A stretch of 64,000 bases of DNA from Nitrospirota bacterium (GCA_963701855.1 CAVPBK010000009.1:224001-288000); one strand, 5' to 3'. Counted from the stretch's first letter, positions 46,703 to 62,144 are shown. Numbers and translations are program-made. The notes: generated by a model not told the origin, from the letters alone.

Positions 46703-48766
46703 CTACCTTGCTCGCCGCACTTGCTGCATGGCGGTTTCAATCACACGCTCCTTCGTGAAGCCGAACTCCTTCTGCAATACTTTCAATGGAGCCGACGCCC
46801 CAAACGTCGTCATGCCGACGATGGCGCCCGTGGGGCCGACGTAGTGTGCCCACCCGAAAGTCGAGGCCTGTTCAACCGCTACGCGAGCCGTCACCGCCGG
46901 CGGCAGCACCTGGTCGCGATAGGCTTGGTCCTGCTGCTCGAACAGTTCCCACGAAGGCATACTCACGACCCGAACCTTCATTCCTTCGGACTTGAGCTGT
47001 TCGTATGCTGCAACGCAGAGCGAGACTTCACTGCCGGTTCCAATAAGGATCACGTCAGGCATGCCATCGGCGGCATCGGCCAGGACATAGGCCCCCTTTG
47101 CCAAACCGGCCGCGGAGGCATATTTCGTACGGTCCAGCGTCGGCACGTCTTGCCGGGTTAGCATGAGCGCCACCGGCTCGTGATGCAGATTCATGATCAC
47201 GCGCCAGGCTGCCACTACCTCATTCGCATCGGCCGGCCGCAGGACAATCAGCCCGGGCATCGCGCGCAACGAGGCGAGATGTTCGATCGGCTGGTGGGTC
47301 GGCCCGTCTTCTCCCACGGCAATCGAGTCGTGCGTGAAAATGTGGATGACCGGCACTTCCATGATTGCGCCGAGCCGGATCCCGCCTCTGGCATAATCAC
47401 TGAAAATCAGGAATCCGGAACCATAGGCCCGGACCTTCACCAAGGCCATCCCGTTCAGGATCGCCGCCATCGCGTGCTCGCGGATCCCGAAGTGAAGATT
47501 GCGACCGCCGGGAGTCTCGGCAGTGACATCGCCCGCCCCTTCAAACGTCAACCGCGTTTTGACCGAAGGGGCCAGATCCGCCGACCCGCCCATCAACCAG
47601 GGCACACGCTTTCCCACCGCGTTCAACACCTGCCCGGACGAGACCCGCGTGGCCAGGCCCTTGGCGTCGGCCGGGAAGGCAGGCAAATCCTTGTCCCATC
47701 CGTCTGGCAACTGCCGGTGTTGCATCCGGTACAATTCATCGGCCAGCTCCGGGTATTTGGCCTTGTACTCTTTGATGCGCGTGAACCAGGCGCCGCGGAG
47801 CGTTTCCCCTCGAGCGCCGATCCCTTGCCTGAAATGCTCAGAGACGCCGTCGGGAATATGGAATTTGGCGTCCTCCGGCCATCCGTAATTTTTCTTGGTC
47901 TTTCGGATTTCCTCTTCGCCGAGCGGCTCTCCGTGAGCTGCCGAGGTGTCTTGTTTGTTGGGCGCCCCGTAGGCGATGTGGCTGTCCACGATGATCAGAG
48001 TCGGCCGGTCTGTCGTCTTCTGGAAGGTTCGAAACGCCCGCTCGAGCATCACGAGGTCGTTGGCGTCGCCGACGCGGGTGACGTTCCAGCCATAGGCGAT
48101 GAACCTTGTTGCGACATCGTCCGAGAAAGCCAGCGCGGTGTTGCCTTCGATCGTGATGTGATTGTTGTCGTAGATCCAGCAGAGGTTCGAGATGCCCAGG
48201 TGTCCGGCCATCGAGGCGGCCTCGTGAGAGATCCCCTCCATCATGTCACCGTCCCCGCACAAGGCATAGACGTTAAAATTGATTATGTCGTCGAAGCCGG
48301 GCCGATTGAAATGCTCAGCCATCCAGCGGCCGGCCAGGGCCATGCCCACGCTGTTCGAAATCCCCTGCCCGAGCGGTCCGGTTGTGGTTTCGACACCGGA
48401 GGTCCACCGGTACTCCGGATGACCGGGGCAGCGGCTCCCCAATTGACGAAACCGCTTGATGGCATCCAACGGCACCGACAGTTCACCGAGGGTCTCGTAC
48501 TCTTTGCTCACGGCCTTCACCCCGGTGAGATGAAGCAGGGAATACAGCAACATCGAGGCGTGGCCGATGGACAAGACAAAACGGTCGCGATTGGGCCAGA
48601 TCGGGTCTTGAGGATCGAAACGGAGAAATCGCTGCCACAGGCAATAGGCCACGGGAGCCAAGGCCATAGGCGTACCAGGATGGCCTGAGTTGGCCTGCTG
48701 AACGGCATCCATGGACAACGTGCGGATCGTGTTGATGCAGAGTTGATCGAGCTGTTCACGAGTCAT
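46703..48766 (-). CDS. tkt: Transketolase
   Basis: ANSGHPG, GDGDMMEG (TPP motif), FGIREHAM and GEDGPTHQP. Confidence 0.96.
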   Translation of the reverse strand: MTREQLDQLCINTIRTLSMDAVQQANSGHPGTPMALAPVAYCLWQRFLRFDPQDPIWPNRDRFVLSIGHASMLLYSLLHLTGVKAVSKEYETLGELSVPLDAIKRFRQLGSRCPGHPEYRWTSGVETTTGPLGQGISNSVGMALAGRWMAEHFNRPGFDDIINFNVYALCGDGDMMEGISHEAASMAGHLGISNLCWIYDNNHITIEGNTALAFSDDVATRFIAYGWNVTRVGDANDLVMLERAFRTFQKTTDRPTLIIVDSHIAYGAPNKQDTSAAHGEPLGEEEIRKTKKNYGWPEDAKFHIPDGVSEHFRQGIGARGETLRGAWFTRIKEYKAKYPELADELYRMQHRQLPDGWDKDLPAFPADAKGLATRVSSGQVLNAVGKRVPWLMGGSADLAPSVKTRLTFEGAGDVTAETPGGRNLHFGIREHAMAAILNGMALVKVRAYGSGFLIFSDYARGGIRLGAIMEVPVIHIFTHDSIAVGEDGPTHQPIEHLASLRAMPGLIVLRPADANEVVAAWRVIMNLHHEPVALMLTRQDVPTLDRTKYASAAGLAKGAYVLADAADGMPDVILIGTGSEVSLCVAAYEQLKSEGMKVRVVSMPSWELFEQQDQAYRDQVLPPAVTARVAVEQASTFGWAHYVGPTGAIVGMTTFGASAPLKVLQKEFGFTKERVIETAMQQVRRAR

Positions 48767-48809
48767 CGCAAGCCTTTCGGGTTATGTGTTGTTGGCGGAA
48801 CGAGGTGTC

Positions 48810-50451
48810 TCAGCCCGGCAGGCGAAGCCGGCGATACCGCCGGATCAACGCGTTGGTCGAACTGTCGTGCCGGAGATCGGAGTCCGTCCCGCTCGTCAAT
48901 TCCGGCGTGATCCGTTTGGCCAGCACTTTGCCCAACTCCACGCCCCATTGGTCGAATGAGTTGATACGCCAGATCGTGCCCTGGACGAAGACCTTGTGTT
49001 CGTAGAGCGCAATCAATTTCCCGAACATCTCTGGCGTCAGTTGCTCGATCAGGATGGTATTCGTCGGGCGGTTGCCTGGAAACGTCCGGTGCGGCACTAG
49101 GGCCGGAGGCGCTCCTTCAACCTCCACTTCCGCGGCAGTTTTTCCAAAGGCCAGCGCCTCCGTCTGCGCGAACAGATTGGACGCCAGCAGATCGTGATGC
49201 TGCCCCATGGGATTGAGCGACCGGCAGAAACCGATGAAGTCACACGGGATCAACCGCGTGCCCTGATGGATCAACTGGTAGTACGCATGCTGGCCGTTGG
49301 TGCCTGGCTGCCCCCAAATAACCGGGCCCGTGTTGTAATTCACCACGCTCCCATCCCGGTCCACGCGCTTCCCGTTGCTTTCCATGTCGAGCTGCTGCAG
49401 ATAGGCGCTCAGCCTCCCGAGGTAGTGATCATAGGGCAGAATCGCCTGCGACTCGGCGCCGAAGAAATTTACGTACCAGAGTCCGATGAGTCCCAGCAGT
49501 ACGGGCAGGTTCTTGTCGAACGAGGCGGTCCGGAAATGCTCGTCCATGGCATGGTACCCGGCCAGCATCTCGCGGAACCGTTCGGACCCGATGGCGACCA
49601 TCAGTGAAAGGCCGATGGCCGAGGGCAGAGAGTAGCGGCCTCCGACCCAGTCCCAGAATTCGAACATGTTGGCGGGATCGATCCCGAATTTCGCAACTTC
49701 GTCCGCGTTCGTGGACACGGCCACGAAGTGGCGGGCCACCGCCTTATCGTTCTTGAGCGCTTGCAAGCACCACGTGACGGGCGGTCTGCGCGTTGGCGAG
49801 AGTCTCCTGCGTGGTAAAAGTTTTCGAGCAGACAATGAACAGGGTCTCCGCCGGATCGAGGTCCCGCGTCGACTCGGCGACATCGGTCGCATCAACGTTC
49901 GAGACGAAACGAAATGTCAGCGCGCGATCGCTGTATGCCCGCAGCGCCTCGTAGGCCATGACTGGCCCCAGGTCCGAGCCCCCGATGCCGATATTCACGA
50001 CATTGCGAATGCGCTTGCCGGTATGGCCTTTCCACTCGCCGCTGCGGACGAGATTTGCGAAGCCGGCCATTTTCTCGATCACCGCGTGGACTTTCGGCAC
50101 CACGTTTTCGCCATCCACTTTAATGGTGGCGCCGGCGGGAGCGCGCAGCGCGACGTGGAGGACCGCGCGATTCTCCGTCACATTAAGCTTGTCACCGCGG
50201 AACATCGCATCGATACCGGCGCGCAAGCCGGCGGCGCTCGCGAGGTCAAGCAACAGACGCATCGTGTCATCCGTGAGGCGGTTTTTCGAATAGTCGAGAT
50301 AGATGCCCTGCGCGTCACACACCAAGCGCGCGCCGCGCCCAGGATCTTTCGCAAAGAGATCCCGCATCTGCACGGTCTTGATCGCCTCATAATGTTCACG
50401 AAGGGCGTTCCAGGCAGCGCCTTGCGTGAGTGGAACTGCGCCGCTCGTCAT
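48810..50451 (-). CDS. pgi: Glucose-6-phosphate isomerase split by a +1 insertion at ~49776 (sequencing error or pseudogene)
   Basis: [18 protein letters not shown] / [18 protein letters not shown] and [10 protein letters not shown]; removing one base restores AQTARTWCL. Confidence 0.92.
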
Positions 50452-50500
50452 CGCATCACCTCCTTGGCATTCCAGCGATTCCTCATGTGATCCTTTCTCC

Positions 50501-60880: not shown

Positions 60881-61956
60881 TCAGTCATCGTGCCAGTCCG
60901 AGCGATGCGCGGCTGCACTCCGCAGCGGCCGGTTCGTGCCTCCAAGGCTTGTCGGTATAGCTGCCGATGGCGGCTCGCTGTTGCATTTGGCCCGATGATG
61001 GAAGGCCAGCTGGGCGGCTTTCAGGTTTTCGTTTTTGCCGATGCCAGGCTTCCAGCGCCACGATCCTGCAGGGCGCGACCGTATGAAAAACTGATCGTCC
61101 AGGGTTTCGGTCAGATCCAGGCGATTGATGGCATCGAGATGCGCGGTCGCAAGTCACGCTCGGCTGCCCGCCGGACAAGAACACGATGCCGGGAACCGCC
61201 GCCGGCACATGACGGCGCAAACAGCGCAACGTGGCCGTTGCGACCTCCTGCACGGAGGCCTGCTTGGGACAAACTTTTCCGGCGATCACCATGCTGGGTT
61301 TCAGAGAGCATGCCTTCCAGCCGGACGCACTGCTCGAAGAGCGCGTCGAAGACCGTATGGAGCACCCAACTCGTGACCTCCTCGCAGCGTTCGATGGTGT
61401 GAGACCCGTCCATGAGAACCTCCGGCTCCACAATCGGCACGATGCCTTGTTCCTGGCACAGGGCGGCATACCGGGCCAGCGCATGGGCGTTGACGTTCAC
61501 GCACATCGGGCTGGGCAGTGCGTCGGTGATGCGAATGACCGCCCGCCACTTGGCGAATCGCGCGCCTATGGCCGCGTATTCCTTCAGGCGGTCCCGAAGT
61601 CCATCGAGTCCTTCGGTCATCTTTTCCTCCGGTGAACCGGTAAGCACCTTTGCACCGGTATCCACTTTGATCCCCGGAATAATCCCCTGCTTGGATAACA
61701 CTTCAGCCAACGGTATGCCCGCGGCGTTCTTCTGACGGATGGTCTCGTCATACATGATGACGCCGCTGATAAAAGCGGCAGCTCCCGGCGTCGTAAAAAA
61801 CATTTCGCGATAGGTGCGTCGGCTGTCCTCGGTGGAGGTAATCTTCAATGCGTCGAACCGCTTGGTGATTGTGGAAACTGTTTCATCTGCTGCCAGAATG
61901 CCCTTGCCTTCGGCTATCAACTCTCTTGCCGTCTGTTCCAGTTCTTGTCGTCCCAT
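60881..61956 (-). CDS. fba: Class I fructose-bisphosphate aldolase with several single-base indels in its 3' ~420 bp
   Basis: [23 protein letters not shown]; then LKPSMV, VFLSGG and SFSYGRALQ in shifting frames, ending HRSDWHDD*. Confidence 0.9.
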
Positions 61957-62128
61957 ATGGATGCCCCCCAATCTCTGGATTCGTTACTCCTCAATCCCCC
62001 CCGACCCAGTCCCTCTTATTTCCGGCAGATCCATCCGAAATATCTAAAAGAGGAAATACCTTATACATCGCTCTAAGTAGTTGCAACGGTAAATTTTTTG
62101 TAAATTTCCCGTCCTGTTCAGCTCGTCA

Positions 62129-62144
62129 AGCAAGAGCCTTGCCG
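62129..62144 (-). promoter_or_regulatory. sigma54-type promoter for the fba-ackA-xfp cluster
   Basis: CGGCAAGGCTCTTGCT (GG-N10-GC) ~170 bp upstream of fba. Confidence 0.55.

Follow-up and report, generated by a model that had tools for sequence, protein, structure and literature searches.

Gene content and organization

A 64,000-nucleotide (nt) stretch of a Nitrospirota genome (GCA_963701855.1, CAVPBK010000009.1:224001-288000), hereafter the window, carries a cluster of nine genes that links glycogen breakdown to phosphoketolase and acetate kinase. Open reading frame (ORF) calling and NCBIfam models place these genes on the minus strand in the order fba-ackA-xfp-glgP-pgm-malQ-histidine phosphatase-pgi-tkt. 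This agrees with the order and common direction reported in an initial annotation, which read the cluster as a natural, transaldolase-free form of non-oxidative glycolysis (NOG). The spacing is operon-like, with seven of the eight intergenic gaps at most 98 nt long and the remaining one 225 nt. The NCBIfam cut-off is passed by xfp, ackA, glgP, pgm, malQ, tkt, and the 5′ part of fba. The nine genes are:

60885..61956, minus: fba, eukaryote-type class I fructose-bisphosphate aldolase (NF033379, 338.8 bits against a cut-off of 250)
59616..60842, minus: ackA, acetate kinase (TIGR00016, 410 against 293)
57164..59572, minus: xfp, phosphoketolase (PRK05261 models pass)
54591..57065, minus: glgP, glycogen phosphorylase (TIGR02093, 1054.8 against 552.9)
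52901..54562, minus: pgm, phosphoglucomutase (TIGR01132, 946.5 against 778)
51335..52904, minus: malQ, 4-alpha-glucanotransferase (TIGR00217 passes; C-terminus in a second frame)
50677..51267, minus: Gpm2/Shb17-type histidine phosphatase (PDB matches to Gpm2 and Shb17)
48810..50451, minus: pgi, glucose-6-phosphate isomerase (split over two ORFs)
46703..48766, minus: tkt, transketolase (TIGR00232, 809 against 682)

The unit does not end at tkt, as first annotated. Co-directional genes run on through a universal stress protein and an ion channel to pgl, and glgX and ppk2 lie ∼9–12 kb further on.

Phosphoketolase and phosphatase

Xfp contains all eight residues of the ATP-inhibition motif PWX2HX3YRX7HXRX31R, at residue 692, and the motif is likewise complete in each of five other Xfp sequences checked. 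The motif was defined in PMC10365998. That paper also cites ATP production by phosphoketolase and acetate kinase (XPK-ACK) for survival of dark anoxia, and gives fructose 6-phosphate (F6P), xylulose 5-phosphate (X5P), and sedoheptulose 7-phosphate (S7P) as phosphoketolase substrates. The motif supports a predicted low-energy switch, without being special to this enzyme.

The histidine phosphatase has as its nearest PDB relatives Gpm2 (2a6p, E 2.5e-38) and, second best, YKR043C/Shb17 (E 9e-22), in line with the Shb17/Gpm2-type assignment made initially. It contains RHG, SPxxR, EWxYGxYEG, and HGHxxR motifs and scores 155 with PRK13462, under that model's cut-off of 226. Models of phosphoglycerate mutases (GpmA/GpmB) give 27–56 bits against cut-offs of 82–409, with dPGM models at 27–42 bits. 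We therefore reject a cofactor-dependent phosphoglycerate mutase, the identity that would have undone the initial proposal. The positions of Shb17 R12, H13, R69, E99, Y102, H176, H178, and R181, presumed functional residues, are kept in the alignment; a histidine occupies the Tyr24 position, as in Gpm2. Gpm2 (Rv3214) is a broad-specificity, substrate-tunable phosphatase with negligible mutase activity and with fructose-1,6-bisphosphatase (FBPase) activity at millimolar substrate; in the same Gpm2 paper (PMC4535450), sedoheptulose-1,7-bisphosphatase (SBPase) activity is cited for Shb17 only. The preference of the cluster enzyme between sedoheptulose 1,7-bisphosphate (SBP) and fructose 1,6-bisphosphate (FBP) is beyond the reach of sequence.

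In quick trees the cluster phosphatases form two groups, and a single grouping is rejected (approximately unbiased test, p-AU 8e-7), a p-value weakened by the two-group hypothesis having been named after the first tree was seen. This suggests that the phosphatase was recruited into the cluster from two lineages, and its having entered clusters of this type twice would suggest that its activity matters there. Among the 80 nearest phosphatase loci, xfp lies within 10 kb in three, zwf in 11, and tal in six.

Related phosphatases occur in other settings. In a member of the Methylomirabilales (L092:6134-14324), genes named mostly from sequence inspection comprise rpiA-like, rpe-like, xfp, a Gpm2-type phosphatase, a HAD protein, a probable sugar phosphorylase, and ackA; this is another xfp–phosphatase pairing, with a pentose isomerase and epimerase. 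In two cyanobacterial metagenome-assembled genomes (MAGs; L093:6921-10145 and L094:7420-10573), a sister-group phosphatase lies directly behind glycogen phosphorylase.

The host genome and its transaldolases

The host genome (G000; 4.3 Mb, 97% complete) encodes amoA, amoB, and hao, and the nearest named loci belong to Nitrospiraceae. From these markers, the host is probably a comammox Nitrospira.

The window contains no intact tal, pfk, gap, or zwf, as judged from ORFs and a tblastn map of its last 38 kb. The reported lack of these genes thus holds for the window but not for the genome, where all four are encoded elsewhere: two tal, two pfk (one pyrophosphate (PPi)-dependent), one gap, and four zwf, along with gnd. 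The first Tal is intact, 388 amino acids (aa) long, and passes TIGR00876. The second, of 215 aa, has transaldolases as its nearest solved relatives (E 2e-80), with FSA far weaker (E ∼1e-34), and was rejected as an FSA on these grounds. It carries E/F at the positions that we take to be diagnostic for transaldolase versus FSA. The PPi-dependent Pfk is encoded on contig C1, outside the window's cluster (NF041103, 641 against 550; GGDD motif). The genome further encodes a second intact tkt, a second intact pgi, malQ-family paralogues, and tpi, rpiA, and rpe, the last three bearing out the housekeeping Tpi, Rpi, and Rpe that the initial annotation had assumed. A class I FBPase gene adjoins that of a DhnA-type aldolase candidate, both being housekeeping candidates; GlpX was not found in any of the five genomes searched.

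Two pfk loci have unusual surroundings or architecture. At L015:4893-13452, an NAD-type formate dehydrogenase operon and a gene for a formate/nitrite transporter are followed immediately by a PPi-dependent pfk. The product of another locus (L003:220-2544) is 774 aa long; its C-terminal part is an ATP-type Pfk domain (GGDG), and ∼425 N-terminal residues have no assignment.

The island itself most likely once carried tal and lost it. In its congener G249 the nine genes stand in the identical order, and immediately after them comes a 1094-aa RpiB-Tal-Pgi fusion (L230:1-2627 with L252; G249:C1:314843-318127), for which RpiB, transaldolase, and Tal-Pgi models pass on the 875 aa scanned. In the window, a short remnant of the gene directly after tkt in G249 overlaps the end of tkt:

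46644..46708, minus: 65-bp piece left from the rpiB portion of an rpiB-tal-pgi fusion (89% identity, E 5e-20)

Given this remnant at the tkt stop and the intact fusion in G249, the simplest reading is a deletion that removed tal from the island and left a scar. The description of the system as transaldolase-free is accordingly not upheld: this genome has two intact tal genes, and a TAL/FSA-family gene is present in all 17 genomes that carry a tallied cluster (see next section), so the property is rejected at the genome level. The Tal-versus-FSA distinction covers the two genes of this genome; the other 16 carriers were scored for the TAL/FSA family as a whole.

A broken stretch follows the rpiB scar at ∼46480-46640 and may resemble the C-terminus of a HigA-type antitoxin; the corresponding site in G012 and G249 is occupied by a VapBC-like pair. 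The host also holds a paralogous island on contig C4 (L010-L011; G000:C4:236600-261750) with tkt (frameshifted), tal, a pgm remnant, an RND pump, glgP, glgX, a HAD gene, xfp, a split P-type ATPase, ppk2, zwf, and pgi, and close copies of it occur in G016, G010, and G031.

Distribution and likely lateral transfer

The eukaryote-type aldolase family was matched in 41 of 251 genomes of the family, strongly in 27. All 27 were mapped; 17 clusters were tallied and 10 were set aside, six for short contigs or contig ends (G102, G188, G148, G158, G114, and G177), two with no xfp seen near fba (G110 and G223), one of a divergent xfp-fba type (G010), and one with several short contigs of both types (G268). 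A Gpm2-type phosphatase gene is present in 15 of the 17 clusters and a PPi-Pfk-type gene in six, and every cluster has at least one of the two. The clusters also contain glgP (15/17), ackA (15/17, plus two remnants), pgi (13/17), pgm (11/17), and malQ (4/17). Intact tkt is found in nine of 16 informative clusters and is missing or a remnant in seven, so that Tkt, part of the cycle first proposed, is present in the window but is not a constant part of the cluster. Intact tal lies inside one cluster (G249) and is absent from the other 16. None of the 17 carriers lacks the TAL/FSA-family gene noted above; pflB is found in two carriers and amoA in eight, all of one genus. Since amoA marks only these eight carriers, we rejected the island as a comammox trait. 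Twenty further xfp loci in the order have neither this aldolase nor this phosphatase.

At four-fold degenerate sites, seven cluster genes differ between G000 and G012 by 0.13–0.22, whereas the median for 155 other orthologs is 0.42, with none so low; across three other genera the cluster differs by 0.11–0.27. The GC content is 0.597 in the cluster and 0.556 in the genome. The low synonymous divergence makes lateral transfer the likely cause, and the block is thus likely an accessory island exchanged among Nitrospiraceae.

Pathway balance and proposed function

We balanced the candidate enzyme sets on paper. The overall reaction F6P + 2 Pi → 3 acetyl-phosphate closes for five of seven sets, in accord with the stoichiometry of three acetyl-phosphate per F6P first proposed. 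The closing sets are the SBP route with Tkt; the same with an X5P-only Xfp; the FBP route with Tal and Tkt, with either Xfp; and the SBP route with an S7P-cleaving Xfp and neither Tal nor Tkt. FBPase alone without Tal fails, as do Tal and Tkt without a bisphosphatase. An X5P-only Xfp had been offered as grounds for abandoning the cycle; we reject this, as the cycle still closes through the second reaction of Tkt. The gene set fits closure yet cannot separate the routes. Given that Tal is encoded, FBPase is the only undemonstrated activity on which the FBP route would depend.

On balance, we lean towards the view that this mobile island makes emergency ATP by converting glycogen to acetate, with a predicted ATP-inhibited Xfp and with NOG-like recycling through the genome's own Tal. 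GlgP, Pgm, and Pgi, whose identities are clear, would carry glycogen to F6P without spending ATP. By comparison with the cyanobacterial and methanotroph enzymes, the motif-bearing Xfp may switch on as ATP falls, and AckA would convert acetyl-phosphate to acetate and ATP. The erythrose 4-phosphate (E4P) released would be rearranged by Tal, Tkt, Rpi, and Rpe, all encoded in the genome. If glyceraldehyde-3-phosphate dehydrogenase stalls for want of an electron acceptor, triose phosphates would pile up, and Fba with a high-Km phosphatase (or, in relatives, a reverse-running PPi-Pfk) could return them to F6P. A redox-neutral, NOG-like loop would then close and approach three acetate per glucosyl unit. 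Any glucose released by MalQ can re-enter only at the expense of ATP, so three ATP per glucosyl unit is a ceiling. A redox-neutral route is favored by the lack of a clear H2 or lactate sink: the genome has no full-length [NiFe]-hydrogenase and no Fe-dependent alcohol dehydrogenase (ADH) or L-lactate dehydrogenase above cut-off, and its sole strong match to a D-2-hydroxyacid dehydrogenase falls within a frame of 568 codons. The island that joins glycogen breakdown, phosphoketolase, and acetate kinase is real and apparently mobile, and its NOG-like recycling arm is credible; a transaldolase-free design is unsupported, and an SBP bypass is possible.

Several observations weigh against this proposal. 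The genome encodes complete Embden-Meyerhof-Parnas (EMP) and oxidative pentose-phosphate (OPP) entry enzymes, with pyruvate formate-lyase (PFL) next door, and seven Zn-ADH-family matches are possible NADH sinks. The clusters share ancestry, so counts across the 17 are not independent, and their content is unstable (tkt 9/16, pgm 11/17, pgi 13/17, an ackA remnant in 2/17). The ATP-inhibition motif is common, occurring in 3,175 of 4,930 related sequences (PMC10365998). Gpm2 has broad specificity, and homologues of the phosphatase also occupy operons of the oxidative pentose-phosphate pathway (PPP). Finally, the assembly shows frameshifts in four of the nine genes: fba, malQ, pgi, and, at its start, the phosphatase gene.

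Alternative explanations

The alternative that survives best, unlikely in our judgement, is that no loop closes and that Xfp and AckA form a side branch of the bifid-shunt or oxidative-pentose type. Trioses would then pass to pyruvate, to be respired or split by PFL, or glucose 6-phosphate would be oxidized through Zwf, Pgl, and Gnd, while Fba and the phosphatase would serve gluconeogenesis or phosphate scavenging. The presence of pgl in the window's island, of gnd or zwf within or next to the G178, G252, and G196 clusters, and of gap and four zwf in the genome fits such a branch, as do the pyruvate kinase gene in the G249 island, the divergent PPi-Pfk gene beside fba in many relatives, and the pflB-pflA-pta-ackA2 block directly upstream here. 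PFL, however, occurs in only two of 17 carriers, and the genome shows no clear sink that evolves H2 or forms lactate. Moreover, an FBPase-type enzyme opposes catabolic EMP flux, yet one was recruited twice beside degradative glycogen genes.

A second and rather doubtful alternative is that most carbon flows through a Tal-independent SBP cycle, in which Fba condenses E4P with dihydroxyacetone phosphate, the phosphatase yields S7P, and either Tkt or an S7P-cleaving Xfp completes the round; Tal and Tkt would be dispensable in the island and in the course of being lost from it. Both versions balance. The pattern of loss agrees: 16 of the 17 clusters lack tal, and seven of 16 lack tkt or retain a remnant of it, yet fba, xfp, and an enzyme of bisphosphatase type persist throughout. 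This invariant core is what the engineered SBP cycle needs beyond Rpi, Rpe, and Tpi (PMC10468489). A second aldolase and phosphatase were imported despite housekeeping candidates for both, Shb17 is the second-best solved relative of the phosphatase, and clostridial PPi-Pfk interconverts S7P and SBP (PMC7029132). Against this, a TAL/FSA-family gene in every carrier means that the bypass is not forced, and redundancy explains the losses from the island equally well. Gpm2, whose FBPase activity is demonstrated, is a nearer relative of the phosphatase than Shb17, whose Tyr24 is replaced by His, and G249 retains tal and the phosphatase together. The boldest form of this idea is that Nitrospiraceae trade a natural SBP cycle made up of an ATP-gated trifunctional Xfp, an SBP aldolase, and a Shb17-like SBPase, on an island that sheds Tal and then Tkt. 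We consider this form a long shot as well; if true, each glucosyl unit would yield three acetate and three ATP in a redox-neutral conversion.

The third alternative concerns the frameshifts. Initially reported for fba and pgi, which we confirm, they are not limited to those two genes but also affect malQ and the start of the phosphatase gene. The last ∼400 nt of fba have 10 inserted and two deleted bases relative to both G249 and G012, in the latter of which the gene is intact (355 aa). There is a +1 shift in pgi at 49776 and another in malQ near 51655, the latter an extra base relative to three of four relatives aligned. In the phosphatase gene, a +1 shift near 51249 throws the orthologous ATG at 51262 out of frame; a TTG at 51267 is in frame. 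The pgi gene differs from that of G249 by 81 synonymous and 25 non-synonymous changes (106 in all), with no stops, and the synonymous share in fba is 33 of 44 in the 5′ part and 14 of 26 in the 3′ part. No set of sequencing runs could be matched to the genome, the best sharing 0.29 of words and none reaching half. If the shifts were real, like the tal deletion, the island would be decaying here, with only Xfp, AckA, GlgP, Pgm, and Tkt at work. The broken share of the cluster (four of nine genes, against six of 175 background orthologs split), the deletion scar after tkt, the clearly eroded copies in G003 and G067, and the intact pgi, aldolase, and malQ-family paralogues that make the island copies redundant speak for decay. 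The lesions, however, are nearly all single-base insertions, a pattern that we presume reflects long-read consensus error; pgi has no in-frame stops and mostly synonymous changes; a similar burst of eight single-base indels in 880 nt affects an unrelated gene of the assembly; and relatives have open frames, or scattered shifts of their own at other sites. Assembly error is thus the likelier explanation, even with the cluster enriched over background, and we regard decay of the island as improbable.

Relation to known systems

Our reading of the island as a source of emergency ATP from glycogen invites comparison with several described pathways. By analogy, the functionally closest is the cyanobacterial XPK-ACK survival pathway, taken together with the parts list of NOG. 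In Synechococcus elongatus, XPK-ACK yields ATP from stored carbon under energy stress, which we liken to the island's predicted role, and the likeness extends to the full eight-residue motif and an acetate kinase (PMC10365998). In the island, unlike that system, the two genes sit in one mobile cluster alongside glgP, pgm, pgi, tkt, and genes for a class I aldolase and a Gpm2-type phosphatase, and the host is a nitrifier without the Calvin cycle.

NOG is a synthetic pathway (Bogorad 2013, as described in PMC10468489). Its parts, Xfp, Fba, FBPase, Tal, Tkt, Rpi, Rpe, and Tpi, are all encoded here, and the conversion of F6P to three acetyl-phosphate balances. The proposed island route differs in being natural and glycogen-fed, in ending with AckA rather than acetyl-CoA, and in lying in a genome with intact EMP and OPP routes. 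The engineered SBP cycle (Hellgren 2020/SCTPK, PMC10468489) needs neither Tal nor Tkt and uses a trifunctional phosphoketolase. The island core of Xfp, aldolase, and bisphosphatase-type enzyme corresponds to its non-housekeeping parts; in contrast, this genome encodes both Tal and Tkt. Gpm2 and Shb17 are the nearest solved relatives of the phosphatase, with catalytic and phosphate-binding motif positions that align; Gpm2 has been shown to act on FBP and a broad range of substrates, and Shb17 is cited in PMC4535450 as acting on SBP and FBP.

A natural SBP pathway in clostridia resembles the island in pairing PPi-dependent Pfk with aldolase (PMC7029132), a PPi-Pfk-type gene being present in six of the 17 clusters. 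Cellulolytic clostridia mostly lack tal and use the SBP pathway for pentose assimilation, whereas all 17 carriers have the tal family; because tal is present, the island does not belong to the transaldolase-free pathway of clostridia.

Among comammox genomes, the MAG LK70 shares acetate kinase and a proposed anoxic breakdown of glycogen (PMC7078480). There, homoacetate formation was proposed through POR, Pta, and AckA, and where the electrons go was left unexplained; a loop built on phosphoketolase would do without an electron sink. Glycogen, EMP, and PPP genes are noted in comammox papers (PMC7078480, 10.1101/138586), a nitrifying-biofilm preprint assigns xfp to Brocadia, and a foraminiferan paper describes a PPK-acetate kinase route (PMC11736642). 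We found no description of the cluster in Nitrospira in a literature search whose scope excluded most subscription journals and the supplementary gene tables of comammox papers, which may list xfp.

The island provides a defined, assayable gene set for the open question of how obligately aerobic nitrifiers survive anoxia. Should the loop close in vivo, nature would have its own equivalent of a pathway described as synthetic, and carbon-conserving engineering a source of enzymes.

Promoter and neighboring genes

The initial annotation placed a GG-N10-GC promoter before fba. The motif is there, but it is weak as a sigma-54 site:

62129..62145, minus: GG-N10-GC, weak sigma-54-like site (three mismatches to the sigma-54 consensus)

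Sites as good are expected in ∼5% of 400-nt stretches of the genome, and one of three same-order relatives keeps it (G012, but not G011 or G023). A sigma-54 promoter before fba is therefore unconvincing. A scan of the G012 counterpart was uninformative, with three sigma-70-like sites against 2.8 expected and 11 terminator-like sites against 6.8.

The other genes annotated around the cluster are:

62820..63641, minus: pflA, the final gene of a distinct pta-ackA2-pflB-pflA block upstream (TIGR02493 passes)
45245..46114, minus: universal stress protein of the same island (PF00582; same position in G012 and G249)
44469..45212, minus: ion-channel protein (PF07885)
43741..44436, minus: pgl, 6-phosphogluconolactonase of the oxidative pentose-phosphate branch (TIGR01198, 184 against 124)
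35525..37669, minus: glgX-like glycogen debranching enzyme (named from its own sequence and paralogs)
34645..35460, minus: ppk2-like polyphosphate kinase 2 (homologous to a PF03976 protein on C4)

By synteny, glgX lies inside the core cluster and ppk2 adjoins it in many relatives. Here, glgX-ppk2 is flanked by GH63/MGH1-like glycoside hydrolase paralogues, 72% identical and in opposite orientations (31863-34622 and 39539-42274); an alpha-amylase-family gene lies beside one of them, and a third copy is on C12.

The PFL block was rejected as part of the conserved unit, pflB being present in two of 17 carrier genomes. Across window positions 62820-63641 and L012:1851-10838 it comprises complete pflB-pflA, pta, and a second ackA that is apparently frameshifted near its start. 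Its neighbors (L012:1851-10838), in what is likely a comammox genome, encode an MFS transporter, a serine dehydratase, and a DcaP porin, and the block resembles a module for serine/pyruvate fermentation, here in an aerobic nitrifier. Near the island is a lone ATP synthase gamma gene (L012:13191-14093), which also occurs upstream of fba in G012. On C1, an apparent alternative ATP synthase operon lies beside an xfp remnant (L018:1276-8103).

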